Below, piece after piece: positions 2,550-39,549 of a stretch of 40,511 nt of DNA (positions within the stretch are counted from its first letter, which is position 1; each line of letters starts with the position of its first letter). This DNA comes from Candidatus Micrarchaeota archaeon (GTDB taxonomy: Archaea > Micrarchaeota > Micrarchaeia > Anstonellales > Bilamarchaeaceae). The position numbers and the translations under genes are program-made. The stretch is from the NCBI GenBank assembly GCA_041694845.1, contig JBGFRY010000030.1:1-40511 (forward strand), read 5' to 3'. The notes beneath the pieces are model-generated. The model had not been told where the DNA came from. It did no database searches and worked only from the letters and a program-made list of their open reading frames with translations.

Positions 2550-3188
2550 ATGCCAGTTATAGATGAAGAAACAAAAAAAATTATCAAACAAAAATTTAAT
2601 GCGTTAAATAATCAAATAAAATTGACATTTTTTAAACCAGAGAATGAATGTACCACGTGCCATTATGCTGAAGAAATGATTAGCGAATTAGCAACATTAA
2701 CTTCTAAAATAAACAAAGAAGTTCTTATTTTTGAGCAGAATATTACAAATGCAAAGGCACTTGGCATCGATAAGGCACCAGGGCTAGCTATGCAGAATGA
2801 TAAAACTATACTGCGATATTACGGATTTCCAAGCGGTTATGAATTTGAAACATTTTTAATTGATTTAATTGATTTATCACGCGGAGAAATAGATATATTC
2901 CAAGAATTAGCTAAAGAAGTCAAAAAAATTAATTTCCCAGTGCATATTCAAGTTTTTGTGACTCCACAATGTCCCTACTGTTCATCAATTGCTAAAGTTG
3001 CACATGATTTTGCAATGATTAATCCAATGATAAAAGGTGATGTTATTGACATCACTGTTTTCCAACAGTTAGGGGAGAAATATAATATAATGTCAGTTCC
3101 TTTCACAGTAATCAATGAAAAACTTATACTAAGAGGTACCTACCCCCCAGATGTAATAATAAAAAAAATACTTGAACTCAAACATTAA
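2550..3188 (+). CDS. Protein disulfide oxidoreductase, glutaredoxin/thioredoxin-like with two CXXC units (PfPDO-like)
   Basis: Two thioredoxin-fold halves with CTTC (N-terminal half) and CPYC (C-terminal half), plus the SVPF cis-Pro region. GGTGG Shine-Dalgarno precedes the ATG. Confidence 0.75.
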   Translation: MPVIDEETKKIIKQKFNALNNQIKLTFFKPENECTTCHYAEEMISELATLTSKINKEVLIFEQNITNAKALGIDKAPGLAMQNDKTILRYYGFPSGYEFETFLIDLIDLSRGEIDIFQELAKEVKKINFPVHIQVFVTPQCPYCSSIAKVAHDFAMINPMIKGDVIDITVFQQLGEKYNIMSVPFTVINEKLILRGTYPPDVIIKKILELKH

Positions 3189-9427: not shown

Positions 9428-10419
9428 TGAAAAGTAAACTGCAATATTTCTTCATTTTACTTTTGCTGATATCACTTTCATTTGCAGAACAGCTTAGCTG
9501 CAGCAGTAATGCTACGCATTATATTTTGAATTTCGAGGATAATCGCCTCCTGCTTCCAGGCATTCTAGCATTTACTGTATTTATGATCATACTTGCATAC
9601 ATGATAGGAAAAACTACGAATAATCCGCAGTTCCAGATTTTTTATAAGGATGAGATGTTCCATCTTTTCTTTTCACTTGCTATATTAGTTGTTTTTTCAG
9701 GAATCTTATTTTTCTCATGTGAAGCTATGCGATTATTCTTTGATTTCTATGTTCAAAAAGCCGGAATTATATCACCTCATTATACCTCTGGTAAATCCCT
9801 TCTTGACATCGCTTATGATATGATTTTTTATATGAGTTCTGACGCATCTTATTTTTCAGGACACCTAATCAAAAAAACAATAGATGCAACAATGTCGTCT
9901 ACGTGGGGTTATTCGTTATATTTTCCATTTTATGGCGGACTTACAATTGCTACAAATGCCTACAAAAGAACCCATGCTTTGCAATATGATAGCCTAAACA
10001 CATTTTTTATCTTGCCAGCTCTTATTAGCATTAACGTACAAAAATTACTCCTTAAATTTGTCATTGATTATGGTGAAGTTTATCTCCTACCACTTGGCTT
10101 TTTCTTAAGGTTATTTCCAAGTATGCGCCAGATGGGGAATATTGTCATCGCATTTGCACTTGGTCTTTTTACAATTCTCCCTTTCATGTATGTTTTAAAT
10201 GGGTTGATGTATGATGTTGTTACGCCACCACCACCACAAGGATGTGATCAATCAATGAAAAATATAATAGACGATCATGTAGTTGGTGATTGTGGTAAGA
10301 ATAGCTTTTACACTGCTGCAAGATTACTCCCCCAGGCATTTTTCCTTCCTAACTTAACACTTGCCATATTTATAACCTATCTCGCTGCAATAAATAAGGC
10401 ATTAAGGGTGTTGGGATGA
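9427..10419 (+). CDS. Paralog 2 of 6: polytopic membrane protein, uncharacterised family
   Basis: Signal-like MKSKLQYFFILLLLISLSFA. Motifs NNPQFQIFYKDEMF and LPLGFFLRLFPSMRQMGNIVIA. PPPP-Q-G-C...C loop. The C-terminal tail is shorter than in the others. The ATG overlaps the P1 stop (TGATG). Confidence 0.8.
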   Translation: MKSKLQYFFILLLLISLSFAEQLSCSSNATHYILNFEDNRLLLPGILAFTVFMIILAYMIGKTTNNPQFQIFYKDEMFHLFFSLAILVVFSGILFFSCEAMRLFFDFYVQKAGIISPHYTSGKSLLDIAYDMIFYMSSDASYFSGHLIKKTIDATMSSTWGYSLYFPFYGGLTIATNAYKRTHALQYDSLNTFFILPALISINVQKLLLKFVIDYGEVYLLPLGFFLRLFPSMRQMGNIVIAFALGLFTILPFMYVLNGLMYDVVTPPPPQGCDQSMKNIIDDHVVGDCGKNSFYTAARLLPQAFFLPNLTLAIFITYLAAINKALRVLG

Positions 10420-12350
10420 AAAGTTTTAAATTTTCAGTTTTCAGTTTTGTTCTAATCATTTTCGTGCTACTAGCTTTACTTTCACTCTCATACACGCAAG
10501 ATGTAACAGAAATATTGCAAAAAACAGAGCAGACATCAGCATTCGAACTTGTTAAAGACTGGCGCGTTCTTTCACTTTTGGCTGTAATGTTTTCTGTGAT
10601 AGTTGTAGCCATTGTTTACATGGTCGGTGTTGGATTTGATATGCCTGATCTAAAAGGTTTTGCAGCTGTTGAATTAAACCAAACAATCGTTACCGCAATC
10701 ATTGTTGCAGTACTTTTGTCAACTATAACTTTTCTTGATTTAATTACTGCAATGTTTGTGAATGAGAGTGATATACTAGATCCTAATAATCCAGACACTA
10801 TTCTAAATTGCGGACCAACTGATTTTTGTGCGAAAAAAATATCCCAGGCATATTTCAAAGACCTGTTAGATACTATAAATAATGCAGCCCGTGGAAATCT
10901 TATCTCTGCATTTAATTATGCAGAAGAGGCTGCAAGCAGAACTGGCTGGTCGTGCAACACATTTATTCTACCGATCCCATGTCTCTGGGGGTCTTTTTCC
11001 TATGCAGATGGTGCGCATCTTATCCTTCAAACAGAGCGGTTGAATATTGTATTAGAAACATATGCAACTATTCTTTCTTCTATCTATGCTCAACAATTTT
11101 TCATTGAGAAAATTTCATTTACTATTGCACCTGCACTTCTTTTGATTGGTATAGTTGCTAGGACACTCTTTTTTACACGAAAGCTTGGCGGCCTTTTAAT
11201 GGCAATAGGAATAGGAGTAATGTTTGTTTTTCCGACTATGTACGTGTTTAATTGGTTTACTATGAACGTAATGCTTTTTGGCGATGCTGTAGTCGGCGTA
11301 TATGGTGCAGTTTCCTGTCCAGAGGAATGCAAAACTGCACCTCTTGCATTTGAGAGTTCTTCGCCAATTACACCACCTAAAATGCAATTCACTCAGTATT
11401 TTTCAGTTAATGAATTATCTAAACGTCTCGAGGAATCAGGAGCAGCTCAAACAAATGACAAAGCAGCTACCTTGGCATATAACTTATCCACAGGCAAAAT
11501 CGAATCTGTCACCATAAGTGGTAATATAAAAATTTATTCATGCGAGTGGATGGCAAATCATACTGCGTTTGCGCAATATGGAGGATACTGTCCACAAGAG
11601 TGTAGAATTATTCCATATCCTGCTCTTCCAAAATGCCTTAATTATACTACGCAATTTGCCTGTGCAGCGTTGGATGGTAGTTGCAAATATATTCCATACG
11701 TAGATCTTATAGCACATCCTGATAATTATAATACACCAAAAAAATGCCCAAAAAAATGCCGTACTATTCCTCCACTTTCAACAAATTGCGATTATATAGA
11801 ATCATATAAAACTCTGAAAAAGAAAGAGTATAACTGTATCTACTCTCCAATTGAATGTCGTGTTGCATTAAAAGATAATCAAAACTGGAGACTAGAAGAC
11901 TGCCTTTCTACTGATAAATATAAAGTCATGATGCCAAATGGAACTCAAGTAGAGACATTCACAAAGGCAACATTAAAGTCATGTGTTGCTGTTAAAGATG
12001 ATCCTTATTCTTCATGCGCATATCAGATAGCAGATGAGGAGACATTAGAGAAAGAATGTGATGGTTGCGTTTTTGTTCCTGTTCAGTACACATTTGACCC
12101 ACCAATATATCTAAACTGTTTGGACGGATGCTCTCAACAGGATACGCCATTGATTTCTCCTGCTGATGTTACAAAGCAATCAAACAAAGGAATGGTTGGT
12201 AGAGATGACATAAAGAATGTAGCATCAGTCCTATTACCTAGTTTTCTTCTTCCACTTCTTAATATTCTTGTTACTGTTATGTTCATAAAAACATTTTCTC
12301 CACTTTTTGGAGGCGATATTGAAATTCCTGGTCTGCAAAAGGTGTTATGA
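10416..12350 (+). CDS. Paralog 3 of 6: polytopic membrane protein with roughly 300-aa Cys-rich insert
   Basis: Motifs GFDMPDLKGFAAVEL, IGIVARTLFFTRKLGGLLMA and C-terminal IKTFSPLFGGDIEIPGLQKVL. The loop between the last two TM segments is expanded (about nt 11304-12224) and holds about 20 of the protein's roughly 24 Cys (hand count). ATGA overlap with the P2 stop. Confidence 0.85.
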   Translation: MKSFKFSVFSFVLIIFVLLALLSLSYTQDVTEILQKTEQTSAFELVKDWRVLSLLAVMFSVIVVAIVYMVGVGFDMPDLKGFAAVELNQTIVTAIIVAVLLSTITFLDLITAMFVNESDILDPNNPDTILNCGPTDFCAKKISQAYFKDLLDTINNAARGNLISAFNYAEEAASRTGWSCNTFILPIPCLWGSFSYADGAHLILQTERLNIVLETYATILSSIYAQQFFIEKISFTIAPALLLIGIVARTLFFTRKLGGLLMAIGIGVMFVFPTMYVFNWFTMNVMLFGDAVVGVYGAVSCPEECKTAPLAFESSSPITPPKMQFTQYFSVNELSKRLEESGAAQTNDKAATLAYNLSTGKIESVTISGNIKIYSCEWMANHTAFAQYGGYCPQECRIIPYPALPKCLNYTTQFACAALDGSCKYIPYVDLIAHPDNYNTPKKCPKKCRTIPPLSTNCDYIESYKTLKKKEYNCIYSPIECRVALKDNQNWRLEDCLSTDKYKVMMPNGTQVETFTKATLKSCVAVKDDPYSSCAYQIADEETLEKECDGCVFVPVQYTFDPPIYLNCLDGCSQQDTPLISPADVTKQSNKGMVGRDDIKNVASVLLPSFLLPLLNILVTVMFIKTFSPLFGGDIEIPGLQKVL

Positions 12351-19124: not shown

Positions 19125-22100
19125 ATGATTCGGTCAGGTTTAATTAGTTCTAGTATTTGTGTATTCTTTCTCTTTATATTTACTTCAACCGGTTTCTCGC
19201 AGATGCCAGTGATGTGCATACAAGGGCAGCATTTTTACACTTATTTTTCAACAATGCAAAATGAATCACAAACTATTATAAGTAGTCGTCTTGTTTATGA
19301 GAATATTGCAGTCAAGCCACCATTACAACCTGTTATATTTGCTCCATTATTTATATATGTATATAACGACACATGGGATGGTAAACTAATTCTTACCTAT
19401 ACTAATAATGATGGCTATGCAACTATAAATATCTCAAAGCATGTGCCTGAGAAAAGTTGTTACAATGTAAGAATTATCTACTGTAATGCTGATGAAATAA
19501 CCATCTCTTGTCTTGAAAATTTCGGTGTAAAAAAACCTATATTAGATTGGTTGAAAGCACAAGCGCAGATTGAAAAGATAAGTACTCTTATGTTCTATCC
19601 AATTTCAATTCTTAGTTTTAGTAGTGATACTTTTGACATGAGTTTATTTAAGAATTCGCCTTCAGGTCCTCTGTCGTTTTTCACTCCTAAGTGGTACCGA
19701 TATTATACAAGCCAAATGCCAGATACCTATTCTCATTCATCAACTATTACATTAAGCTCTGCATTAGATGAGATTCAGATGTGTGGTGGTGGCGCAACAG
19801 TTGCTCCTGCAGCAACAGTATCATTTTGCATACCTTTAATATTGATATTCGCGCTTATGGCAGGAGGGCTTTTCCTCTCTGGAAAAAACCCACTTATGGG
19901 ATTTGATTTTGCAACACCGAGAATTGGTAAATATTACGGAAGATACAGTGCTCGTGGAAGAGGATGGTTTTTTGATTTAAGCTCAATAAGAACTTTTGCA
20001 TCAGGAATTCAATCTGCAAAATCAGATGTAGTGAATCTTAAATCAGAAGGATATATTGGGATGATTACAAGAGATATTAAATCTATGTTCAGTGGTTTAA
20101 CCACATCTTCTGAAAAAGTTAAAGATAGTGCTAAGACACCAGGAAGTGCTTCAAGCGTCAGCCAAGCTGCTGTAAAACTTGGTCTTGGTACTGGAAGAAG
20201 AGGAATGGCTTTGTTCGGGTTGGAACGTGTTGCAGGTGGTGGCGGGATAGTTGCAAAAGGCAAGGCAGTATCATATATTTCGAGTAGATGGGGAGAGTAT
20301 AAACAAGAAAAAGGAAAAGATGCTATAGTTTATGGCCACAGTCACACTGTTTCAACAATTTTAGGAGCTATCATAGGATATTTTGATCTCCCTGGTATAA
20401 TTAATTGGATAAATGTTTTTGCAGGAACTCAAAAGGACTGGAAGCAGATTTTTGGGAACCTGGCAAAACCAAGTAAGTCGAATGCGCGAGAAACACTTAA
20501 AAAAACTGGACCAAACGGTGAAGGCATTCAAATTAGCTATGAATATGAGAGTATTAACTATGAATATGCGAATCAAACAACAAAAAACAAATATAAGAAA
20601 ACTTTTACTTTACAGCAACTTCATGATGGAAAATTTATAATAACTGTAGATGAGAAAAAGATTACAGTTAACACAAGCGATCAAGATGATGTTGGAAAAG
20701 CTGCAAAAGAATTAGGTATAGAACCACAACGGATCATTGAGATGAAAACAGAGTTCGAGAAGCAGAGAACTGCAGCTGCTTTTGTTGTTTTTGAAGCAGC
20801 ACATGCAAGAAATATGAAAGTAGGCAGTACTATTAGCTCATTAGCTTCAGAGATGGCTAAGAAGATAGAAGATAGAATTAAAGAATATGAAGAAAGCAAA
20901 GAAACTGCAACTGATCTTAATGATGTAATAAAAAAAATCGCCATGCTCCAAAAAGAAAAAGAGAACTATCAAATAATTGCAGCATATTATGCAGGGCATG
21001 TTGATAATGATAGATACAATGATGCAGTAAAAGATTTATATTCAAGTAAAAAAATGTCAGATGAGATTGGATTGCAAATAGATATTTTTAACATAACAAA
21101 GAAAGAAGTGGAATATACACAACGGTTTGCAAATACTTCATTTATTATCTTTAATATTTTGCAACAACAAAAACAGGTTTCATCATCACTTAATGGAGAA
21201 ATCAGTGCTGCAACTGATTCAGTTAGTAAACTTGGAGACTATATATTGAAAGCATCAAATCAATCAAAAGATGTTTATGATGAAACATTTTCTAAAAAAA
21301 TTGAATTGGCAATTGCTGATGCAAATCTTAAAACTGCACGTGCAGAAGCAGCAGGTGCTTTATATTATACTCTTCCCCCAGATACTAAGCTAGAGGATTT
21401 TCAGAAATTGAAATTGCCAGAACTAGATATAAATGTCCCTGCAGAAATGGATAAAAACTACTTTGTTCATAAGAAAGCCGAGATCTATAAAGATCTTACA
21501 AAACTATACACAAGTGTTTCTCAGTATGCTCTTTATATCGAAAATGAAAATGTAGGACCGCGAGTCACTCCCAAACTTGCAGATGACATAGCAAATATAG
21601 GGAATTATGCTGTGAAATCTGCAAAAACTATTAGTGATGCCTCTTTAATGTTGGAGACTCTATTAATCGCTTCATCTGCTGATCACTATCTAACAGATTA
21701 TTCTACAATAAATGGCCTTATTGTCCTTTACGCAACTGATAAAACTGATAATCAACGAAATAATCGCATTCAATATATGAATATATATCTTGAGGTTAAC
21801 AATAACCACAACGCAGCGCAGCGAAAAGCGCTTGGAGGGATGATGGAGACAGAAGATGGTGTTAATAAAGTGATGAGCTGGTTAGAGAGCCGTAGTAGTG
21901 TACCTAAATATAAAACTATCGTAGAAGGAATAAAGGATGGAACAATTATAAGAGTACGAGAAAGAGATATGGATCTTAATAATCCAGCTATCAAAAGTGC
22001 AGTTGCAGACGTACTAGTAAAGCACTTACCAGATCAAGATTTAGATCGCTTTCTTGAGTTAAAAATAGATTACAAAAAAGGATTTGAAGAATTATTTGCA

Positions 22101-22361: not shown

Positions 22362-22700
22362 ATGGGATTTTTAAGCGATATTTTAAAGACAATGGTTGGA
22401 GGAGGTATAGAGGTAAAAAAAGGACCTAAGCAGAAATGCCCTAATTGCAAGGAAGATATTACTTTGGATATGAAGCGCTGTCCTAAATGTGGGGTTCATA
22501 TAAGCTCAATGTTTAGAATGAAATGCCCAAAATGTAAAGAACTGAACGAGCTTGATGCAAAAAAATGCAAGAAGTGTGATTATAATTTTGAAGCAGAGCT
22601 AAAACGTGCTGAAGAAAGTGTTTATATATGCCAAATATGTCAGTATAAAAGTAAAGTGTTTCTTACTTCCTGTCCTGCATGCAATACGAGATTTATATAG
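22362..22700 (+). CDS. Triple zinc-ribbon protein
   Basis: Six CxxC pairs in 112 aa: CPNC/CPKC, CPKC/CKKC, CQIC/CPAC. Confidence 0.7.
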   Translation: MGFLSDILKTMVGGGIEVKKGPKQKCPNCKEDITLDMKRCPKCGVHISSMFRMKCPKCKELNELDAKKCKKCDYNFEAELKRAEESVYICQICQYKSKVFLTSCPACNTRFI

Positions 22701-23358: not shown

Positions 23359-25077
23359 CTATTTTTTTATCAGATTATACATTAGAGATACTAAAACAAT
23401 AATTAGAATAACTACAATGAAATAAAAAATACTCTCACCATTCTTAGTACCTTTAATAGTTTCATTTTTTTCAGTTAATCGTTTTTTTATTTCTTCTGTT
23501 GCTTCATCCAACCCTTCTGCAAATTTGAATATTTTATACGCAACATTCTCAGTTCCTTTTTGCTGTGCCAGAAATACTCCATGGCCTTGGTAAAGTTTTC
23601 CCCAGAGCGAGCTCCTATTTTTTCCTTTCATTTCTTCTATTTCGTCATTTATCTGATTTGAGCTATGCGTCTTAATATAATCAATTGCATGTACACTTGT
23701 TATGATGAAAACAGAATCGTATACTGCTCCTGCGTATAATTCCTTATCAAAAAGATTTTTTGCTGCTTGCAAATGAAACTTTAAATCATTGTCATAAATA
23801 GTAAGCGACTGCGCTTCTTCTAATTTATCTTTGGCAAGTTCTTTGAGTGATGATTCATCAATTTCTTTTCCTTTTTCATCAATCATGTTTCTTAACTCAT
23901 TAGAGACATGACACCATGCATCAGCATACATTAATTCATTGAATACAAAATATTTTTCGTCAGCAAGCAATGGCTCATCTACATTAGTATTGCTAATTTT
24001 TGTTAGTGCCCATTCCTTTCTTATATCAGCACCAGCCAACCACTCAAAATTATTAAAAGTTTTCTTATAATTCTTAAGTGCATTGACACATGCAATTACT
24101 CTTTCCTTTTCTTTGTATAAATCCAGATTTTCAACATTCTCCAAAATTCCCAAAGAGGTTGCATAAATATAATTTAAAAACGCTCCGTTAGCAGCAGTAA
24201 ATATATAACCTTTTTCAAGAAGAACCTTTTGATTTTCAATTTCCTGTAAAAAGAATTTTTTAAGTTCTTTAGTTTCATTCAACGATTCTGATAAGGAGTA
24301 TACTCTTTTACTCTCGAGTTCAATCATCGCTAGAGCAATCTCTTTAAATTTTGTAAGATCACCATTATCAAAGGTATCATGCACTGTCAAAGTAGGTAAG
24401 ACCTTTACTTCTGCCTTAAATTCTTTTTTTTCTATTGTTGTATTATAAAATATGAAATCTATTGCTTCATCTACATTTTCAATCTGAAGTATTTGCATTC
24501 CATACTGTTTTTCCAGTGGCTTTAATAGTAATATCTCGTGAATATCTTCAACTGGTATTATAAAATACTTTATTCCTTTTCTGCCAGCCATTTTTGATTT
24601 TTCATAAAGGCCACCTACTTTTTTAACATTGCCATCTTTGTCAATTGAACCAGTAAATGTAACATCATTAGGAATAGTAAAATTGTTTATTGCTGCATAT
24701 ACCAAAACAGAAAATGCTACGCCAGCACTTGGCCCTTCGACATACCCAGTAAGACCTTTTCCTTCTATTTTTATAAGTACATTGCATTCATCAATGTATT
24801 TATTACTTCTTGAAAAAGCATATGTAACTGCATCTGTGGCAGATTTTTGCGTAGATGTCCCTGTTGGCGGATGTGTTTGGAGATAAACAGTACCATCCCC
24901 ATTAACAAGATTTAAAGATACATCTATTAGCTTTCCAGTTGTCTGCAAACCTGTTTCATCACTTACTATTGCGGGTACAACACTACCAGCATACCCTAAA
25001 CATTCTGCTGTTCCTGAATTAATTAATAGAGGTAAATAGAATGCAATAAATAGTATTAATTTTATGGACGATTTCAT
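23359..25077 (-). CDS. Exported, C-terminally membrane-anchored Lon-type (MEROPS S16) serine peptidase domain protein
   Basis: N-terminal signal MKSSIKLILFIAFYLPLLINSGTA. S16 proteolytic-domain blocks YVEGPSAGVAFSVLVYAAI (catalytic Ser) and TGSIDKDGNVKKVGGLYEKSKMAGRKGIKYFIIP (catalytic Lys region). No AAA+ module. Roughly 330-aa helical domain, then C-terminal TM FYFIVVILIIVLVSLMYNLI. Confidence 0.75.
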   Translation of the reverse strand: MKSSIKLILFIAFYLPLLINSGTAECLGYAGSVVPAIVSDETGLQTTGKLIDVSLNLVNGDGTVYLQTHPPTGTSTQKSATDAVTYAFSRSNKYIDECNVLIKIEGKGLTGYVEGPSAGVAFSVLVYAAINNFTIPNDVTFTGSIDKDGNVKKVGGLYEKSKMAGRKGIKYFIIPVEDIHEILLLKPLEKQYGMQILQIENVDEAIDFIFYNTTIEKKEFKAEVKVLPTLTVHDTFDNGDLTKFKEIALAMIELESKRVYSLSESLNETKELKKFFLQEIENQKVLLEKGYIFTAANGAFLNYIYATSLGILENVENLDLYKEKERVIACVNALKNYKKTFNNFEWLAGADIRKEWALTKISNTNVDEPLLADEKYFVFNELMYADAWCHVSNELRNMIDEKGKEIDESSLKELAKDKLEEAQSLTIYDNDLKFHLQAAKNLFDKELYAGAVYDSVFIITSVHAIDYIKTHSSNQINDEIEEMKGKNRSSLWGKLYQGHGVFLAQQKGTENVAYKIFKFAEGLDEATEEIKKRLTEKNETIKGTKNGESIFYFIVVILIIVLVSLMYNLIKK

Positions 25078-30313: not shown

Positions 30314-31084
30314 ATGACATCTAGTAAACAGAAAATAAATCCGCTACATATTGGTTTGGCACTAGTTGGTGTATTTGCGATATTGCTTGCTTTATTATAC
30401 TTTAGCGGAGGAAAAAGTGGACCTGATATTGAAAATTTAGATTCGTTAAATATTACTACTGGGTCCCTTCCTGCTTTAGGTTCTGCAAATGCACCTGTCA
30501 CTATAATTGAATTTAGCGATTATCAATGTTCATATTGTGCAAAGTTATATTCTACTGTTAAAAAGAAAATTAAGGCAGATTATATAAATACTGGAAAAGT
30601 TAAACTTTACTTTAGAGACTTACCACTACCAATGCATGATAAAGCAAAGGATATGGCACTTGCTACAAGATGTGCAAATGAGCAGGGAAAGTTTTGGGAG
30701 ATGCATAATAAAATATTCGAAAATCAGAACAAATGGGCTTATTCCTCTCTTTCAGATGCTATGAAAATAGTAGATTCTTATGCTGCTGAATTTGCATTAG
30801 ATAGTACAAAATTCAAAAGTTGTATGGAATCAAAAAAATATGAAAATGAAATAAACGAGGATGTTAATTATTTCATCAAGAATTATAAAAAAGCTTCAAC
30901 ACCAGTGATGTTTATCCTATTACCTAAAAACAAAACTTCAGATCTAAGTGCAGTGAACACTTACAAAAATGCGTATCCAGATAATGTATTAATTGGCCAG
31001 AATAGTGATAGTTATGTTGTTGTTATTATTGGTGCATTCCCTTATGAAACATATAAAGCAATATTAAATACAGTTAAATACTAG
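30314..31084 (+). CDS. Membrane-anchored DsbA-family thiol:disulfide oxidoreductase
   Basis: N-terminal TM anchor LHIGLALVGVFAILLALLYF. APVTIIEFSDYQCSYCAKL contains the CxxC active site. The following helical insert with C...C is typical of DsbA/BdbD-like proteins. Confidence 0.8.
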   Translation: MTSSKQKINPLHIGLALVGVFAILLALLYFSGGKSGPDIENLDSLNITTGSLPALGSANAPVTIIEFSDYQCSYCAKLYSTVKKKIKADYINTGKVKLYFRDLPLPMHDKAKDMALATRCANEQGKFWEMHNKIFENQNKWAYSSLSDAMKIVDSYAAEFALDSTKFKSCMESKKYENEINEDVNYFIKNYKKASTPVMFILLPKNKTSDLSAVNTYKNAYPDNVLIGQNSDSYVVVIIGAFPYETYKAILNTVKY

Positions 31085-31341
31085 TTTTTACTTGATATTC
31101 TTGTTTTTTTAGAAAGATACCAAATACAATATCCTGCGACTCCTATTGATACTACTAGCATAATTGTGCTTGGTAATAAACTAGATAAATCTACTTTTTC
31201 TTTGCCTTCAGCAGAAGTATATTGTAAAGATGGCATTTCTAAATTCTCCCATAAAAATAATGCTGTGCTTAATGCAATCATGATGCTTATCGCAAGAACA
31301 ACAATTACGTTAAAATGACTTGTTATTTCGTTATTTGACAT
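31081..31341 (-). CDS. Small two-TM membrane protein downstream of atpD
   Basis: 86 aa with two clear hydrophobic helices. The start overlaps the atpD 3' end by 19 nt. Its stop shares a palindromic CTAG with the stop of the convergent dsbA-like gene. Confidence 0.5.
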   Translation of the reverse strand: MSNNEITSHFNVIVVLAISIMIALSTALFLWENLEMPSLQYTSAEGKEKVDLSSLLPSTIMLVVSIGVAGYCIWYLSKKTRISSKN

Positions 31342-31982
31342 ATATTTTCTTTCTTCTCCTTTTCAAGTTTTCTCTTAATTACCTTAAGGCTTACAAAACT
31401 ATCTCTTTCCATTTCATCCAAACGAAGGGTTATCATTCTTTTTTGTTCTTCTAATTTTGGGATTACAATATATTCCAAAGCACTTACACGTCGCTTTGTT
31501 TTTTCAATTTCACCTATAAGCCTTTTTATCGCTGTTTCTGTTTCAGCCAGTGCAATTGTTATGCGCAATATCTCGTTAAATCGCTCAATCGCATCATCAA
31601 GTTTTGCAGAAGTTCCTATCACTGGATATGTAGGATTTTCATACAATGGTCTCTGCTCAACAGAAATTTGCATAGATGGTATGCGTACGCCCATGACATT
31701 TTTTATTTCAATATCCATTTCAATTTTCTTGCGAAGGTTTAATGAAATGTTTTCAATCTCAGAACCGCTGTGATACAACTCTACTAAAGAAACACTATGA
31801 TATGCCCCTGCAATTTTTTTTGCTAGCTCTCCCCTTATATTCTGTGCTTTTTTCAGAATTTTGAAGAACTCTAATATAAGTGCATCACGCTTTTTTTTCA
31901 AAAGGTCATATCCTTTTTTAGCTAGCACTATACGTTCTTTTATCTTGATAAGTTCCATCCTTGTTGGCGTTACTTCTACCAT
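31323..31982 (-). CDS. atpD: A-type ATP synthase subunit D
   Basis: VTPTRMELIKIKERIVLAKKGYDLLKKKRDALILEF is the canonical AtpD N-terminus. Confidence 0.92.
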   Translation of the reverse strand: MVEVTPTRMELIKIKERIVLAKKGYDLLKKKRDALILEFFKILKKAQNIRGELAKKIAGAYHSVSLVELYHSGSEIENISLNLRKKIEMDIEIKNVMGVRIPSMQISVEQRPLYENPTYPVIGTSAKLDDAIERFNEILRITIALAETETAIKRLIGEIEKTKRRVSALEYIVIPKLEEQKRMITLRLDEMERDSFVSLKVIKRKLEKEKKENICQITK

Positions 31983-32009
31983 AATATCAGTTCTTTACTA
32001 ATAGCTAAT

Positions 32010-33398
32010 TTATCTATTATCTTTTTTTAAGTATTTCTCAATATGCTCCTTTTTAATTCTCTTAAGTTCTGCTTCAGGTAACGCAGATAAAAGATCCCAT
32101 GCAATTCCAATTGTTTCTTCGATCGAACGATCTTCATAAGGACCTTGCTGGACGAATTTCTGCTCAAATGCATCTGCAAATTTTAGATATCTACGATCAA
32201 TTTCAGTAAGCGCTTCTTCACCAACAACTGCACTCAAGCTTCTAAGATCACGACCATTTGCATATGCTGCATAGAGTTGATCAGCGATGCCTTTGTGGTC
32301 TTCTCTTGTTTTCCCGACACCAATACCTAAATTCATAAGTCGCGATAGTGATGGTAAGACATCTACTGGTGGATAGATCCCATTTCGATGAATGTCCCTG
32401 CTCAAAATAATCTGACCTTCTGTAATGTAACCTGTTAAATCAGGGATTGGATGGGTCTTATCATCTCCAGGCATTGTTAGTATCGGAAATTGTGTAACGC
32501 TTCCTTTTCGCCCTTTTATACGACCAGCACGCTCATATATCGTGGAAAGATCAGTATACATATAACCAGGATAACCTCTTCTTCCAGGAACTTCATGTCG
32601 TGCTGCAGAAACCTCGCGCAACGCCTCTGCATAGTTCGTCACGTCAGTGATCAAAACAAGTACATGCATGTCATGCTCATATGCTAAATACTCTGCAGTT
32701 GTCAATGCAAGTCTTGGCGTAATAAGCCGCTCAACAGAAGGATCGTCTGCCAAGTTCAAAAATAGTACTGCATTCTCAATCGCGCCAGTTTTCTCGAAAT
32801 CTCTAATAAAGAAACTCGCTTCTTCATGCGTAATTCCAACTGCCGCGAATACAACAGCGAATCGTTCTTCCTTTCCAAGAACCTTTGCCTGTCGTGCTAT
32901 CTGCACTGCTAACTGGTTGTGTGGAAGTCCTGCGCCAGAGAAAATCGGAAGTTTTTGTCCTCTTACTAATGTGTTCATCGCATCAATCGTAGAGATGCCT
33001 GTTTGAATGAACTCGGAAGGTGCATCACGCGAGTAAGGGTTTATAGGAAGACCGCTTATATCAACTCTTTCTTCAGGAATTATTTTTGGTCCTTTATCAC
33101 GTGGCTCACCAAGGCCGTTAAATGTGCGGCCAAGCATCTCAGTACTCAAACCAAGCCGCATTGTTTCTCCCATGAATTTTACAGAAGTTTGGCTTCTGCT
33201 TATTCCACCTGTAGCACCAAAAACCTGTACAACTGCAATGCGTTCGCTAACATCAAGAACCTGGCCTTTTCTTTTCTCTCCGCTATGAAGTACAATTTCA
33301 ACAATCTCTCCATAACTAACCCCGCTGACATCCTCAACAAAAACAAGCGGGCCTGTGATTTCCGTAATTGTTCTATATTCTTTCACAAACATCACCAA
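32010..33398 (-). CDS. atpB: A-type ATP synthase subunit B
   Basis: [45 protein letters not shown]. 462 aa. Confidence 0.97.
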
Positions 33399-33406
33399 TT
33401 TTCTTT

Positions 33407-35155
33407 TTATCTCTTCAACAAATCATCAAATTCATTATCAATTTCTTTTTGGAGTTTATCAAACTCTTCTAGTTTATTCTCTGAAATTTCCTTCATTCTA
33501 CCGATTTTATTTCTTGTAGAGAGATCTATAATTCTCTTTAGCTGAACACCAACTTCAAAAGATCCCATTGTGCGCTCATGAAATCGTATGATTGTTTTAA
33601 GCATCAAGTATTGTTTCTTTAGATTGCATCGTGCATCAACATCACTATATGCATTCTGCTGAAGATAATCTTCGCGTAACATTTTAGTTGTCATTAGAAC
33701 TGCTTGTTCTTTTTCAGGTAATGCATCAGGACCTACAAGTTGTACAATTTCTTGAAGCTCTGCCTCTTTCTGCAGTAGTGCCATGGCAGTCTTTCGCAAT
33801 TTTGGCCATTCTGAAGATGCCTGTTTCATGTAATATTCTTCCAATTCATCAAGATAGAGTGAGTAGCTCTTTAACCAATTAATTGCTGGGAAGTGCCTTC
33901 TATACGCAAGTGATGCATCAAGTGCAAGAAAAACTTTAGTAACACGTAGTGTGTTTTGCGAGACAGGCTCTGAAAGATCACCGCCTGGAGGTGAAACAGC
34001 ACCAATTACACTAACACTACCATAACGTTCATCGCTTCCAACACATCGCACTCTTCCTGCTCTTTCATAAAATTCTGCGAGTCTTCTTCCTAAATAAGCA
34101 GGATAGCCTTCTTCGCCAGGCATCTCTTCAAGACGGCCACCAATTTCACGCATTGCCTCTGCCCATCGTGATGTTGAATCAGCCATCAATGCAACATCGT
34201 ATCCCATGTCCCTAAAATATTCTGCAATTGTAATTCCTGTGTAAATACTTGCTTCGCGCGCAGCAACAGGCATATTTGATGTGTTTGCGATGAGTACAGT
34301 TCGTTCCATAAGTGGTCTTCCTGTTTTCGGATCAGTCAATTTCGGGAATTCCTTAAGCACTTCTGTCATTTCATTTCCGCGTTCGCCGCATCCAATGTAA
34401 ACAATAATCTGTGCATCAGAGAATTTTGCAAGTGCCTGCTGACAAACGGTCTTTCCAGATCCAAATGGTCCTGGAATGGATGCAGTACCACCTTTCGCAA
34501 TTGGAAAAAACGTATCAATAATACGCGTACCAGTAACAAGAGGAATTACAGGTGGGAATTTTTCAATAACTGATCGTGATTTTCTTACATACCAGCGTTG
34601 ATACATATATAGTTTTTTTTCTTTTCCTTCTACAGAAATCGAACCGATACTCTCTTCAATTTTAAATTTTCCAGATTCTATCGATCCAATCTTACCATCA
34701 TATTGAGAAAGAATTTTGTGCTCAATTAGCTCAGTTTCTTTTACAGTTCCTAGAACATCCCCAACTTTTACCTTTGCACCTTTTTTTACAGTTGCTTTGA
34801 AATCCCATTTCTTTTCTCTGTCAAGTGCATATGCCAGTACACCACGTTTGATGAATGCACCACCTGATTCACTTTCAACAACAGTTAAAGCACGTTGCAC
34901 TCCATCGTATATACTTGTCAAAAGCCCTGGCCCTAACTCAACAGAAAGTGGTTCGCCTGTTGTTTCAACCGCTTCTCCTGGTTTTAAACCGGCAGTGTCC
35001 TCATAAACCTGAATCACTGAGGTATCCCCGACTATCTTGATTATCTCTCCGACTACTTTTTCTTCGCCGACTCTTACAACATCATATAAACGCGCACCTT
35101 CTACAAAGGCCTCAACAACAGGACCTGATATTCTTTTTATAAATCCTTTAGTCAC
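33407..35155 (-). CDS. atpA: A-type ATP synthase catalytic subunit A
   Basis: Walker [44 protein letters not shown]. 582 aa, no intein. Confidence 0.97.
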
Positions 35156-35173
35156 ACAATCACCTTTACTTTT

Positions 35174-35497
35174 TTATTTTGATGAAAGATCAACACCTAG
35201 CGCTCGCTTTATAAGCAGTATAATATCCTCACTCTCAATTTTAGTTCCACTAATATCAGGTATTGAGATAATTATTGGATAAGGGTTTGCATCAATCTGT
35301 CTTCTCAATCTCCAATCGATTTTGCTTAGCATTATTTCATTAACAACAATTATACCGAACTCCTTGTTTTCAAGTGCTGTTTCAAGATTTTTTTGAAAAT
35401 GCTCATTTGATGTTTGTATTGTGTTTTCTACACCAGCAAGTCTAAAACCAGTGACAAGTGATTCATCACCAAGCACCAATAATTTTGCATTAACCAT
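35174..35497 (-). CDS. atpF: A-type ATP synthase subunit F
   Basis: LVLGDESLVTGFRLAGV is the typical AtpF opening. 107 aa, in the expected operon position. Confidence 0.85.
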   Translation of the reverse strand: MVNAKLLVLGDESLVTGFRLAGVENTIQTSNEHFQKNLETALENKEFGIIVVNEIMLSKIDWRLRRQIDANPYPIIISIPDISGTKIESEDIILLIKRALGVDLSSK

Positions 35498-35506
35498 TCA
35501 AGCACC

Positions 35507-36610
35507 TTAAACAATAACCAATATTTCCTTGATATCTTGCTCAGAAACTCCAAATTCTTTTGCCTTTGCTATCTTGCGTAAATTGTTTACTTCCTCTTCT
35601 TTAAGAAGTAAAAAACCAAGCAACACACCAATCGAAAGAATGCTTTGGTGAAATGTTTTAACCTTCTCATAAGCGATTACTTTTTCAAGGATAATCTCTA
35701 GATCAGTAAGAGATGAGCATTCCTTTTCACTACTCTTTCTAGCAATCAACTTTGGGAATCTTGTTTGCAACAAACCATATGTTTTTTTCAAATCATCGGC
35801 TTCTATAAGTTTCTCAATAAATAAATCAAAGAGCGTTCCACCTTTTATAAGAAAATTTCTTATCTTTTTTTTGTCAACTCCATGGGCCTTTAGTCTTTCT
35901 ATCAATAATATATTCTTTGCATCTATCTCAAGTCGCAGTAATTTTCTTACTAATTCAACATCCTTGTCGCTTGATTTTAATCCCTTATCCATAAACAAAT
36001 AGATATAGGCATCAAGTATTGTCTGCAATTGAAAGAATTTATCCATACTCTTAAGTGATGAGCGAAATGCATCAAACATTGAACGGTTGAAATGTTCTGT
36101 GCTTGATGAAAGCATTTCCTCTCCAAGACTTGTCTTTTTTATTTCTTCAAATAATTCCATTTCATCAGCTTTTGCTATTCGTTCATAATCACTTTCATTG
36201 ATTGTACCTGTGTTTATTAGATATGGTCTTATCTCTTCAAATGTTTTTCCAATGCGTTTTGCATTTATTATCATTTTGAGATTAAGGAGGTCCCATTTCA
36301 TAAGAAGTGCATTTATTATTTCAATATCATCGCTTGGTGCAAATTTTTTTATTTTTCTTGCAATCTTCCCAAAATGGCGGATAGCTGCAAGCTCAACTAC
36401 TGCTGAGTCTCTGTATTTTAGAGAGTAATAATTTATATCTTCTTTGTAATGAGTGCGCTGTAAAAGTTCAGCCATTGCAGAGATTGCTCTAACACTTATC
36501 AATTCATCTAAGAATTGTTGCGTAAGAAGCAACCCCTTCATTCCACGGACTCTTACATTTGAGTAACCGTATTTAAGTTCTCTTGTTTTTAACATAGAAA
36601 TATCAGTCAT
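35507..36610 (-). CDS. atpC: A-type ATP synthase subunit C
   Basis: YGYSNVRVRGMKGLLL opening, 367-aa all-helical protein, operon position between E and F. Confidence 0.85.
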   Translation of the reverse strand: MTDISMLKTRELKYGYSNVRVRGMKGLLLTQQFLDELISVRAISAMAELLQRTHYKEDINYYSLKYRDSAVVELAAIRHFGKIARKIKKFAPSDDIEIINALLMKWDLLNLKMIINAKRIGKTFEEIRPYLINTGTINESDYERIAKADEMELFEEIKKTSLGEEMLSSSTEHFNRSMFDAFRSSLKSMDKFFQLQTILDAYIYLFMDKGLKSSDKDVELVRKLLRLEIDAKNILLIERLKAHGVDKKKIRNFLIKGGTLFDLFIEKLIEADDLKKTYGLLQTRFPKLIARKSSEKECSSLTDLEIILEKVIAYEKVKTFHQSILSIGVLLGFLLLKEEEVNNLRKIAKAKEFGVSEQDIKEILVIV

Positions 36611-36615
36611 GTTTT

Positions 36616-37251
36616 CTATCGTTTAGTTTTTGCTTTTCTTTTTTGTTCTTCTCTTTTAGATTCATCTGCTTCTTTTTCTTTGTTGCATTTTCCAAAAAGC
36701 TCTTCATAAATCTTTTTGCGGAATGCGTCCTGCTGCAATTTGAATATTGCTTCTACAGACATATCTACTCTTACTTTTCTATCAGAACTTTCAACTATTA
36801 GACCACCAAATGCATCTAAATCTTCTACGATCTCCCCATCAAACGAGCTTAAATTCTTCTTATCGCCTTTTGCAATATAGACTATGACGTTTTTACCGCC
36901 AATCTCTTCAAGTGCATTGTTCAAACACCGCTGTAAGAATTCTGGATATTTTTTATGTTGTCTGATGTCCTTTAGCATAGAAAAAATTTCTTCTATTGCA
37001 ATTTTTATCGCATCCTCTCGTGCTTCAGATATCAAACGTTTTCCCTCAAGTCGAGCCCATGCAATTCTTTCTTTTTTTTGTTCTCTCAAAAGTTTTGCTA
37101 TTTCCTTATCTGCTTCATGCATCAACTCTGCTTTTTTTGTTCTTTCTTCAGAGAGCATCTTTTCTACATGCCACTCAGCAGTTCGTACTATATCTTCTAC
37201 TTCCTTCTTTGCATCTCCCAACAGAGAGGATATTAGTTTTTCAACTCCCAT
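36616..37251 (-). CDS. atpE: A-type ATP synthase subunit E (with Lys/Glu-rich C-terminal tail)
   Basis: N-terminal long helix (MGVEKLISSLLGDAKKEVEDIV...) plus globular C-terminal domain. Operon position fits. Confidence 0.8.
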   Translation of the reverse strand: MGVEKLISSLLGDAKKEVEDIVRTAEWHVEKMLSEERTKKAELMHEADKEIAKLLREQKKERIAWARLEGKRLISEAREDAIKIAIEEIFSMLKDIRQHKKYPEFLQRCLNNALEEIGGKNVIVYIAKGDKKNLSSFDGEIVEDLDAFGGLIVESSDRKVRVDMSVEAIFKLQQDAFRKKIYEELFGKCNKEKEADESKREEQKRKAKTKR

Positions 37252-37317
37252 ATAAAAAAACTCACCTATATAAGGCTAGTTGGCAGGGGACGTAACCCCA
37301 AATCAACTTATCTAAAT

Positions 37318-37581
37318 TCAATGAGTGCTTCCACCCATGAATATTATTAACATCAACGCTGTTACAAAGCCTAATAGTGCAAGGATCTCTGGCAGCACAA
37401 GCCATATAAGAACGTTTTTCTCCATCTCAGGCCTTTCTGCCACTAATCCCATGATAGCTGAACCCAAAGCTCCTTGGGACCATGCTGCTGCAAAAGCGCT
37501 CAATCCTATTGCAATTCCTGCACCGATTGCAATTGCTGCACTAGTCGTAATCCCACCCGTTGCTGCTGTTTCTGTTGCCAT
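37318..37581 (-). CDS. atpK: A-type ATP synthase proteolipid subunit K (single hairpin)
   Basis: 87 aa with two TM helices. The Gly/Ala-rich helix 1 contains WSQG. Helix 2 is LVLPEILALLGF with the carboxylate Glu. There is no Ser/Thr after the Glu, which argues weakly for H+ rather than Na+ coupling. Confidence 0.9.
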   Translation of the reverse strand: MATETAATGGITTSAAIAIGAGIAIGLSAFAAAWSQGALGSAIMGLVAERPEMEKNVLIWLVLPEILALLGFVTALMLIIFMGGSTH

Positions 37582-37638
37582 ATTTAATTCACCTCAAATT
37601 TTTCATTTTTTCTTTCTTTTATATTATATTTTTAATCT

Positions 37639-39549
37639 TTACTTTACTGAAAATGGTTTGAAAATTTTCCCGCCACCATGCAAAAATTTTGATCTGAATT
37701 CAACAATATTGAGACGTCCTCCTTGTATTAATGCCTCAATCATTACAATTAATGTGTTAATAACATGAAGAATAATAAATATCGGAATTAATAAAATCGC
37801 AAATATGCCATAAGATGGCATTGGAACAAGGAGCATGTTTATTACCTCGGCTAGCATAACGCCTACTACGCCGACTGCTGCAATTCGTGTATATGATAAT
37901 GCATTTCCCATCAACCCAGGTACTTCTAGTATCCCAACAAAACCTTCTGTAAGAACCAAGCCAATAAGAGATAATACCAACAATGCAATACCTACAGTGC
38001 CTATTACTGATGGAAGTGCTCCTACGAAACCAGCTATCGCAAATGTCCCACCTATTTCTGTGCCTAACCATGCAAGCTTTCCATAAGCATGTTTTCTATT
38101 ATGGTTCCATTCATTATACGCTGCGATTATAAACCCGAGAGCGAGATGAAATAATCCAACAACAATAGTTATAACTAACAGAGTAGTAAATTCAAAAACG
38201 CGATGCAATCCCTTATATAATGCTCCATGAACACCGATTGCTTCTAATGAAATACCCCATTTCTCAAAAATCTTAAACCAATAGGCATGCGGTACGCCAA
38301 ACCATTCATCGAAAACTAATCCAAAAAATATTGCAAAACATGCTGAAAAATACCAAATCTTTGCTGCATTCACAAGCATTTCGTTCTTAAAATTGTTCAT
38401 AAACCACTTAGCTAAAAAGATGGAAATCAATCCATATATAACATCGCCAACTATCATCCCGTAAAATAATGGCAGCGTTATAAAATATATCATTGTTGGG
38501 TCAAGTTCACGAGAATTCGGAAAAGAAAATGATTCTGTAATATATTGGAATTGGCTCGCGTATTTTGGGTTATCTAAAACTGTTGGCGCAATTTCATGAT
38601 GCTCTGTTTCAACACTTTCTATTATAGTATCTGGTGTACTTCCAACAATTCTTTCAAGTTCTTCAAGATTCTTTGATTTAACCCAACCTTCAATAATAAA
38701 AGCACTTTTTGTGAAATTAAACCTGCTAGTGATCTCTGCACGCTCTGCTTCAATGTTGATTAGTTTTTCAAGCGCAAGGATTTTTTTGTAATGTTGTTTT
38801 GAAAAAGAATTTAGTGTAGCATTTATCTCCTTCTGTCTTTTCTCGCTATTTTCCAATTCATGGCGTAGTTTATCCATCGTATGCTTTGGATATGTAACCC
38901 AAACAGGTACTTGAATCCTAGAAAATCTAAGGTCAGATAGTAATTCACTAATATCATAATTCCCTTTTTTATATATTAAAAGACAGCGTATTTTCTCCTT
39001 TTTGTTCTTTTTATCTTCTTCAATACGTATATTGTAATTTTCAACAATTTTATCAAGTTTTTTTCTACATTCATCTACTTTTGCAGTTGTGATATCACCA
39101 ACAATGTAGGATATCATTCGTGTCTCAAGTTGTGAGAAATCAATATCATCAAAAACAGTCAATTCTTCAACTATATGCAACTCATTTTTCAATCTTAATA
39201 TTTCAGATTTTATATTGACATTCTCTTCAGTTAGTCCTTTAAGCTCTCTTTCTAATTTTTCGAGCTCGATTTCTTCCTTTCTTATATCATAAGATGTTGG
39301 TGGGTTTGACCAGTCTTCTGCTTGCTTGATCATCATCGCTTTTACTGCACGAAGACGTACCAGTTTCTCTGACAATGCATTAAATACTTCCAACGGTCGT
39401 CCTTGTTCCAACCCACTGGCACTATAATCAATTACTTTTATCTCAATCAAGCCAGCTTCATGCAATTCTTTTATTAATGGTGATAAAATGCTCTTTAGTC
39501 CTATTATTCTAATTTTTTGCATTTTTATTGGTTTAAGCATATAAATCAC
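37639..39549 (-). CDS. atpI: A-type ATP synthase subunit I (stator a-subunit)
   Basis: Cytoplasmic coiled-coil N-half plus polytopic C-half with the conserved LSYTRIAAVG Arg motif. The true start may be ATG 39540 (MLKPIKMQKIRIIG). Confidence 0.92.
   Translation of the reverse strand: MIYMLKPIKMQKIRIIGLKSILSPLIKELHEAGLIEIKVIDYSASGLEQGRPLEVFNALSEKLVRLRAVKAMMIKQAEDWSNPPTSYDIRKEEIELEKLERELKGLTEENVNIKSEILRLKNELHIVEELTVFDDIDFSQLETRMISYIVGDITTAKVDECRKKLDKIVENYNIRIEEDKKNKKEKIRCLLIYKKGNYDISELLSDLRFSRIQVPVWVTYPKHTMDKLRHELENSEKRQKEINATLNSFSKQHYKKILALEKLINIEAERAEITSRFNFTKSAFIIEGWVKSKNLEELERIVGSTPDTIIESVETEHHEIAPTVLDNPKYASQFQYITESFSFPNSRELDPTMIYFITLPLFYGMIVGDVIYGLISIFLAKWFMNNFKNEMLVNAAKIWYFSACFAIFFGLVFDEWFGVPHAYWFKIFEKWGISLEAIGVHGALYKGLHRVFEFTTLLVITIVVGLFHLALGFIIAAYNEWNHNRKHAYGKLAWLGTEIGGTFAIAGFVGALPSVIGTVGIALLVLSLIGLVLTEGFVGILEVPGLMGNALSYTRIAAVGVVGVMLAEVINMLLVPMPSYGIFAILLIPIFIILHVINTLIVMIEALIQGGRLNIVEFRSKFLHGGGKIFKPFSVK

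Follow-up and report, generated by a model that had tools for sequence, protein, structure and literature searches.

What would a membrane protein do with a large cysteine-rich domain placed between its last two membrane helices, when it is one specific member of a set of six related proteins that carries it? The question is raised by a 40,511-nucleotide stretch of DNA from Candidatus Micrarchaeota archaeon (positions 1 to 40,511 of contig JBGFRY010000030.1, forward strand, assembly GCA_041694845.1), referred to here as the window, in which six tandem paralogs, P1 to P6, are encoded and the third of them, P3, contains the domain. Micrarchaeota are DPANN archaea with reduced genomes that are attached to host archaea and, to our knowledge, no symbiont-side molecules of the Micrarchaeota–host contact are known. 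Positions 11304–12224 correspond to residues 297–603 of P3 and encode exactly 20 Cys, in agreement with the original prediction, made from the sequence of the window, of an ectodomain of about 300 amino acids (aa) with about 20 Cys. We lean, with little more than even confidence, towards the reading that residues 297–596 form an extracytoplasmic domain held by about ten disulfides and that this domain, carried by the third of six subunits encoded in a fixed order, binds a partner outside the membrane.

Conservation, age and internal repeat of the domain

The Cys of residues 297–603 are found at positions 301, 305, 376, 392, 396, 407, 416, 423, 444, 448, 458, 474, 481, 496, 523, 534, 548, 551, 568 and 572, and Cys accounts for 6.7% of the domain versus 0.86% of the 22 other genes of the window. 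This Cys pattern is conserved across an alignment of 52 full-length orthologs, in which 16 of the 20 positions are invariant and three more are retained at 94–98%; C496 varies by an alignment shift only, as in each ortholog a Cys stands either at that position or in the column of residue 518. The number of Cys in the loop is even in 49 of the 52 orthologs (p = 5e-12) and, among 74 distinct species representatives, in 66 (p = 9e-13), and judging from these alignments the 20 conserved Cys probably form ten disulfide bonds. Other strongly conserved residues of the domain are Pro, Gly and the basic residue that follows a Cys (R397, 100%; K424, 86%; R482, 88%), and the ortholog alignment did not reveal a catalytic-looking set of conserved residues in the domain.

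The 52 orthologs, 552–1,114 aa long, were obtained by a protein search; those with a named source all come from Micrarchaeota-group archaea (including entries labelled 'Bilamarchaeum' and 'ainarchaeum'), and most are annotated as 'hypothetical protein'. In a profile search of 1.84 billion cluster representatives, 2,116 proteins passed E ≤ 1e-3, of which 259 also passed E ≤ 1e-30; P3-type proteins of up to 1,890 aa were among them. A scan of species-representative genomes, in which the GGDIEIPG motif was among the patterns used for retrieval, found relatives in at least 198 stretches, the best 80 of which bear only the labels Micrarchaeota, Micrarchaeia, Bilamarchaeaceae, 'ainarchaeum' or the generic 'archaeon'. 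The window, the relatives L001 and L004 and the majority of the 76 loci with a P3-type gene have P3 in third place of the array, the exceptions being contigs that end early or gaps in the calling of open reading frames (ORFs). Each position has a typical size, about 400 aa for P1, about 330 aa for P2, 600–1,400 aa for P3 and about 330–360 aa for each of P4, P5 and P6, followed by a Cys-rich giant, P7, of 1,130–1,930 aa. The window sequence itself is present in two groundwater DNA runs only; RNA evidence was sought and none was found.

A tree built on the shared core from 102 paralogs (17 sources, the window and 16 loci) placed each position in a group of its own, with support in the Shimodaira–Hasegawa-like approximate likelihood-ratio test (SH-aLRT) of 99–100 for P1, P3, P4 and P5 and 99 for the P3 branch, and the loop was found in every P3-type ORF identified in the sampled loci. 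The duplications and the insertion in P3 are therefore older than the radiation of the sampled Micrarchaeota. On this phylogenetic evidence the domain is judged to be ancient, inserted early and later expanded or contracted by modules, and the notion of a recent addition 'grafted' onto the subunit has to be given up. Its restriction to one subunit, also foreseen, was borne out, because hidden Markov models of the modules described below matched P3-type ORFs only among 6,393 ORFs from 85 sources (84 loci and the window). Stand-alone copies of the domain were not encountered in a word-indexed search with the loop alone, which gave itself and one 48%-identical ortholog, or among the best 150 profile matches, all of which carry the membrane core.

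Within the domain, a profile of residues 388–426 (module A) matches residues 442–483 (within module B) over its full length, and the reverse search succeeds too. Comparison of the two sub-alignments with hhalign gave a probability of 94% and a score of 31, with a maximum score of 17 among 100 shuffles, match columns only, from which the modules, of about 40 residues each, are taken to be homologous; the expectation of a detectable internal repeat thus held. Each module follows the pattern C-P-x-x-C-[RK]-x-x-P-x-P-x(3-5)-C ... C-x(6)-C-[RK], and in both structure models described below the four P-x-x-C-[RK] sites adopt one helical turn followed by an extended stretch. The proposed recurrence of C-P-x-x-C-(R/K) stands for three motifs, starting at residues 301 (CPEECK), 392 (CPQECR) and 444 (CPKKCR); three or more such motifs occurred in none of 200,000 shuffles of the loop and at least one in 1%. 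The [RK] after the first motif did not prove to be conserved in orthologs, and SPIECRVAL, with SPIECR at residue 477, is not a degenerate fourth copy as had been supposed: it is the terminal C-x6-C-[RK] element that closes module B and aligns with CAALDGSCKYI of module A. DNA-level repeats were considered as the source of the recurrence and dismissed, since a single 12-nucleotide (nt) tandem repeat was found, within the third motif, implying that the modules are old repeats at the protein level, not the product of recent duplication of the DNA. Both Cys of the encoded PKKC-PKKC are invariant in orthologs, and the repeat may have originated by slippage of replication across an A-rich tract.

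AlphaFold2 models built with the 52-sequence alignment were confident both for the whole of P3 (predicted local distance difference test, pLDDT, 83.5; predicted template-modelling score, pTM, 0.71) and for the domain alone (pLDDT 83.8, pTM 0.80). The domain model runs from a Cys-free subdomain (residues 306–375) through the two modules to a mixed C-terminal part. Most 10-residue blocks of the Cys-free subdomain reach a pLDDT of about 94–98, with one dip near residues 317–326, and no part of the domain is less conserved (24% non-Cys identity). The modelled helices of the membrane core are very long (residues 77–118, 138–173, 202–249 and 255–292) and, given these lengths, must reach beyond the membrane.

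A fold relative did not appear. Foldseek searches gave at best E = 4.6 (template-modelling score ≤ 0.10) for the domain model against PDB, E = 1.2 for the domain model against BFVD and E = 0.15 for the full P3 model against PDB, with no secretion-system chain among the 50 matches listed; all query-normalised template-modelling scores were ≤ 0.17. For EGF-like, furin-like and TNFR Cys-rich folds, the outcome with the domain model is a weak negative, as small irregular disulfide folds are hard for Foldseek. P3 matched no Pfam family at E ≤ 0.1, its 52 orthologs gave only three single-member chance matches and six giant orthologs gave none; the Dickkopf N-terminal/colipase-type family PF04706 matched neither the 52 orthologs (E ≤ 0.01) nor the window protein (E ≤ 0.1). 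NCBIfam contained no match for P3, and sequence profile searches of PDB returned nothing for P3 and nothing for the core paralogs. The domain is an undescribed family without a detectable fold relative, and the membrane-protein set that carries it, widespread in Micrarchaeota, is also undescribed. The surface-layer (S-layer) protein of Ca. Micrarchaeum harzensis was considered as a relative of the Cys-rich proteins and rejected, since it is described as almost devoid of sulfur-containing residues (bioRxiv 10.1101/2021.04.28.441871).

Predicted membrane topology, probable oxidative folding and co-encoded proteins

The side of the membrane on which the domain lies can be approached from the charge of the loops and from the genes encoded nearby (Table 1). 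Across orthologs the loop between transmembrane (TM) helices 4 and 5 is free of acidic residues, while Lys/Arg number 30 per 100 residues; in P3 it contains FFTRKLGG (residues 251–259), which, like the GGDIEIPG motif of the C-terminal tail (residues 632–639), is invariant or nearly so in the 52 orthologs. The P3 N-terminus is signal-peptide-like by hydropathy, and Cys and N-x-S/T sequons are confined to alternate loops, those predicted to be outside. Beyond residues 297–603, P3 has just four Cys (132, 138, 180 and 189), all in the first predicted outside loop: 132 and 138 are kept in 50 of the 52 orthologs, while 180 and 189 are gained or lost as a pair, both missing from the same 19 sequences, which is the behaviour expected of a bonded pair. 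The several sequons that had been noted in the Cys-rich loop do exist, four in number, but do not significantly exceed the 2.2 expected by chance (p = 0.16) and are not conserved, with 0–12 per ortholog.

Two co-encoded proteins point in the same direction. In 48 of 51 species the P7 ortholog (among loci L001–L079) bears a lipobox-like [A/S/F/L]-G-C motif, and the number of Cys after the lipobox Cys is even in 42 of these 48 (48 Cys in the window protein), the same disulfide signature as in the P3 loop; P7 is likely an extracytoplasmic partner. A DsbA-like protein, encoded 18 kb from P3, is likely, by its family match and signal-anchor, an outward-facing thiol:disulfide oxidoreductase and a candidate catalyst of the disulfides of the domain. 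Together, the charge pattern, the signal peptide, the even-Cys lipoprotein and the DsbA-like protein indicate that the loop would lie outside and be folded oxidatively, and from these sequence features the domain is most likely outward-facing and disulfide-bonded, as had been proposed. A second thioredoxin-fold protein (2550–3188, + strand; 212 aa), with two thioredoxin-fold halves (CTTC and CPYC), resembles archaeal cytoplasmic protein disulfide oxidoreductases; it was rejected as the extracellular oxidase as it has no signal peptide or TM segment, and the DsbA-like protein fits that role better.

The six paralogs have in common an LRxFxFTRxxGG loop and a C-terminal LGGE-type tail, and the start codon of P3 overlaps the stop codon of P2 (ATGA). 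The last outside loop of the other five paralogs, given earlier as 60–130 aa, measures about 40–126 aa by hydropathy, so that the earlier figure was roughly right. P1 (8063–9427, + strand) has a smaller insertion of about 126 aa at this same loop, with seven Cys, e.g. SYCIPSCAGTGPGYAACYTACF; its ORF as listed may start too early, 8180 having been used as the start in the original prediction.

Table 1. Coordinates of P3, its parts and associated features in the 40,511-nt window
Feature	Position	Strand	Basis
Six-paralog array P1–P6	8063..15442	+	Alignment; own clade per position in the tree of 102 proteins
P3 gene, 644 aa	10416..12350	+	ORF list; 52 full-length orthologs
P3 residues 1–25, N-terminal signal peptide or first TM helix, MKSFKFSVFSFVLIIFVLLALLSLS	10416..10490	+	Hydropathy; helix 3–25 in the model
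P3 residues 49–115, TM hairpin (helices 49–73 and 77–118) with conserved MPExKAWAxxELxQ turn, predicted cytoplasmic	10560..10760	+	Hydropathy, alignment, model
P3 residues 117–227, first predicted outside loop, long helices and small sheet	10764..11096	+	Alignment, model
P3 residues 228–292, TM4, cytoplasmic loop ARTLFFTRKLGG (family signature; three Lys/Arg, no acidic residue) and TM5	11097..11291	+	Invariant R/R/G/G/P columns; charge count
Cys-rich ectodomain, P3 residues 297–596, 20 Cys, isoelectric point 5.6	11304..12203	+	Hydropathy, alignment, model
First CPxxC (CPEEC), residues 301–305	11316..11330	+	C, P and C invariant in 52 orthologs; next K variable
Cys-free alpha/beta subdomain, residues 306–375 (strand-strand-helix-helix-strand-strand)	11331..11540	+	Model, alignment
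Module A, residues 388–426, CPQECRIIPYPALPKC...CAALDGSCKYI, five Cys (392, 396, 407, 416, 423)	11577..11693	+	R397 and P400 invariant
Module B, residues 440–485, CPKKCRTIPPLSTNC...CIYSPIECRVA, five Cys (444, 448, 458, 474, 481)	11733..11870	+	Homologous to module A
Two perfect tandem copies of the 12-nt unit CCAAAAAAATGC, coding for PKKC-PKKC in module B (third CPxxC motif)	11736..11760	+	Tandem Repeats Finder
C-terminal Cys-rich part, residues 486–575 (Cys 496, 523, 534, 548, 551, 568, 572)	11871..12140	+	Alignment
Linker returning to the membrane, residues 576–596, low confidence	12141..12203	+	pLDDT about 50–55
P3 residues 597–644, last TM helix and cytoplasmic tail with near-invariant GGDIEIPG motif	12204..12347	+	Alignment, model
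P7, 1,199-aa Cys-rich lipobox protein, translationally coupled to P6	15439..19038	+	Lipobox-like motif, even Cys number
Membrane-anchored DsbA-like/Thioredoxin_4 protein, 256 aa, CSYC active site	30314..31084	+	Pfam E = 9e-32; N-terminal signal-anchor

Adjoining the cluster, a gene on the – strand (23359–25077) encodes a protein with the C-terminal domain of Lon protease and no AAA+ module, as does L001 at 20589–22040; its presence beside the cluster both in the window and in this distant relative indicates that the neighbourhood is conserved. Further downstream, an A/V-type ATP synthase operon (31323–39549, – strand; subunits D, B, A, C and I) has a housekeeping function.

Size variation, selection and likeness to other Cys-rich modules

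Orthologs have loops of about 250 to about 1,300 aa with 20 to about 120 Cys, at a steady Cys content of 8–9% and with 1–13 CPxxC[RK] motifs. The size classes cluster on the tree of the membrane core and follow phylogeny: loops with 20–26 Cys occur in several lineages, among them the window and L005 and L006, which are closest to it, those with 32–36 Cys in one clade of 40 species, and those with 72–102 Cys in one further clade, so that the domain of the window is the minimal, 20-Cys form. The main insertion hot spot follows residue 545, where the insertions of orthologs average 78 aa and reach 442 aa. A second expansion site lies directly after the signal peptide (past residue 27 of the window protein; seen in P0010, P0051, P0093 and P0109), and the resulting N-terminal Cys-rich extensions reach several hundred residues with up to 32 extra Cys. 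Several Micrarchaeota genomes contain two P3-type genes, apparently in two operons (L058/L076, about 17 kb apart on one contig, L007/L018, L030/L075 and L040/L066), and the two copies of one genome can belong to different loop size classes.

Non-Cys identity among orthologs is 24–31% in the domain versus 43–62% in the membrane core. The ratio of nonsynonymous to synonymous substitution rates (dN/dS), calculated by the Nei–Gojobori method for ten close pairs, was 0.10–0.44 in the domain and 0.07–0.43 in the core, and in the only unsaturated pair (L020/L036) it was 0.166 in the domain and 0.076 in the core. Selection on the domain is purifying and relaxed about two-fold relative to the core, and dN/dS over these ten pairs gave no gene-wide sign of diversifying selection. 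The domain is more variable than the core, and its length varies five-fold.

Modules of about 30–45 residues held by Cys, present in variable number in a rigid extracellular projection with a variable surface, are reminiscent of EGF-like domains, furin-like/growth-factor-receptor repeats, TNFR Cys-rich domains and the CXXC-rich variant surface proteins of Giardia. The domain differs from all of these in having no Pfam, NCBIfam or Foldseek match, in its C-P-x-x-C-[RK] signature (C-x3-C) in place of a CXXC or EGF pattern, and in its position as a loop between TM helices of a polytopic archaeal protein rather than a single-pass ectodomain. With respect to position, it recalls the large extracellular loop of tetraspanins and the Cys-rich luminal loop of NPC1 and Patched, which are Cys-stabilised, variable at the surface, placed between two TM helices and provide a partner-binding face. 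This is an analogy only, since sequence and fold are not similar and the number of TM helices, the family and the domain of life differ.

Possible roles of the domain

The reading we prefer, that of a domain binding a partner outside the membrane, can be put as follows. The domain would emerge as a loop between the final two membrane helices of a single, specific subunit and consist of four parts, a CPxxC clasp, the Cys-free alpha/beta subdomain, the two modules of about 40 residues and the C-terminal Cys-rich part, built on a constant framework of Cys, Pro and Gly, with variation in surface residues and module number. The six paralogs would assemble into one hetero-oligomer, of which the P3 domain would be the single rigid, asymmetric projection into the space under the S-layer or through it, where it may bind an outside partner, be it the co-encoded Cys-rich lipoprotein, the S-layer or a structure of the host cell. 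A putative role in binding or host contact is plausible. Several points weigh against this reading. The case for a single complex comes from conserved order, translational coupling and ancient paralogy; the data indicate no partner of the domain, and loop size does not co-vary significantly with the size of the lipoprotein encoded downstream (rho = 0.24, p = 0.13), nor was any co-variation found when Cys numbers were compared; the topology is derived from hydropathy, the positive-inside rule and context, and the turn between TMa and TMb, assigned to the cytoplasm, is net acidic; and the loop has an odd number of Cys in 8 of the 74 species, for some of which ORF or loop boundaries may account.

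The strongest of the competing explanations, although an unlikely one, is that the domain is a passive rigid spacer or strut that keeps the membrane complex and the S-layer a set distance apart or braces the envelope, without a specific ligand. The modular, stepwise changes in size at constant Cys density are what a spacer would display, the conserved residues are structural (Cys, Pro and Gly) with no conserved polar patch among them, and Micrarchaeota possess an S-layer with unresolved anchoring (bioRxiv 10.1101/2021.04.28.441871). However, the invariant Arg after C396 and the conserved basic residues after C423, C448 and C481 suggest more than bracing, and the aligned orthologs have kept the Cys-free alpha/beta subdomain.

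We consider it somewhat less probable still that the domain is a host-recognition adhesin, a receptor-binding head of the symbiont that diversifies with host range. Micrarchaeota do need cell contact with their host (PMC8975820, PMC11329633). No other part of the protein is as variable as the domain, clades differ in its length and in the number of its modules, and some genomes hold two copies of the operon. Purifying dN/dS values (within the range given above for the ten close pairs, and 0.17 in the sole unsaturated pair) make it unlike an arms-race adhesin, however; in addition, the Cys framework and many Pro positions are fixed phylum-wide, the 40-species clade retains nearly the same 32–36-Cys form, and neither a lectin nor an Ig-like or any other adhesin fold or family came to light, even in the versions of 1,500–1,900 aa.

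A similarly doubtful proposal concerns the complex as a whole, which would be a pseudo-six-fold, hetero-hexameric conduit, perhaps of ancient descent from VirB6/CedA-like channel proteins, and serve as a port of the symbiont for docking to host cells or host-derived nanotubes and for the uptake of lipids, DNA or metabolites, with the P3 domain as its single asymmetric cap or probe. Such nanotubes, which extend from the host to the symbiont, were seen by cryo-tomography of a cultivated Micrarchaeon (PMC11329633), and any tie between them and this gene set is conjectural. The tandem VirB6 paralogs of Rickettsiales type IV secretion and archaeal CedA and CedE, the membrane parts of the Ced DNA-import system of Sulfolobales, are likewise tandem polytopic paralogs, some with very large hydrophilic extensions. 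Among 80 core paralogs (the array of the window and 75 paralogs from 15 loci), CedA and CedE were the only NCBIfam families matched repeatedly (three members, best E = 1.6e-4, and two members, best E = 1.3e-3, respectively), but the scores are far under the curated cut-offs (17.2 bits versus 400 for P4 of the window), and the Cys-rich loop has no counterpart in VirB6, CedA or CedE proteins. A gene for a VirB4/CedB-type ATPase or a pilin was not identified among the scanned ORFs of the 40.5-kb window. The link between the core paralogs and VirB6-like channels may reflect very remote kinship or similarity of TM composition, and we treat it as a lead, not a result. In the mycobacterial Mce system, six tandem paralogs, MceA–F, form a hetero-hexamer, a pseudo-six-fold envelope-spanning assembly with unequal extensions. 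The arrays described here are likewise made of six ancient paralogs in a fixed order, but homology is absent, Mce proteins are single-pass with MCE domains whereas the present paralogs have five or six TM helices, and the assembly here is an inferred one. If the conduit proposal were true, the number of modules, with 20 to about 120 Cys, would tune the reach through the S-layer and the partner engaged.

Very unlikely, in our judgement, is a redox-active or metal-binding (Zn, Fe-S or Cu) function of the CPxxC clusters outside the cell, in thiol exchange, electron transfer or metal capture. Expanded orthologs contain dense clusters such as C-x2-4-C-x1-3-C-P-x-x-C, a basic residue beside a Cys, as found here, lowers its thiol pKa, and the groundwater from which the samples come may be anoxic. 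Yet the Cys counts, although even, are in many cases not divisible by four (22, 26, 34 and 50), the spacing is C-x3-C whereas zinc knuckles and thioredoxin-like sites have C-x2-C, Pfam gave no match to a metal-binding or ferredoxin family, and no conserved His accompanies the Cys; spacing and counts (22, 26 and 34), together with the predicted outside location, likewise set the domain apart from zinc-ribbon and other Cys4 proteins. Finally, an inverted topology that would turn the loop into a cytoplasmic zinc or iron-sulfur domain is scarcely credible: archaea commonly have Cys-rich domains in the cytoplasm and the cluster itself encodes a triple zinc-ribbon protein (22362–22700), but in every ortholog the TM4/TM5 loop contains three Lys/Arg and is free of acidic residues, P3 begins with a signal-like segment, its partner is a lipobox lipoprotein with the same even-Cys signature, and no zinc-ribbon family was matched.

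Whichever role it has, the domain defines a new Cys-rich module, C-P-x-x-C-[RK]...C...C-x6-C-[RK], and adds to the evidence for disulfide-rich protein folding outside these archaeal cells. It is the only large, exposed and size-variable part of a six-paralog set present in at least 198 species and, being compact, confidently modelled and predicted to be expressible alone, would offer a handle for antibodies, pull-downs and labelling in cryo-electron tomography.

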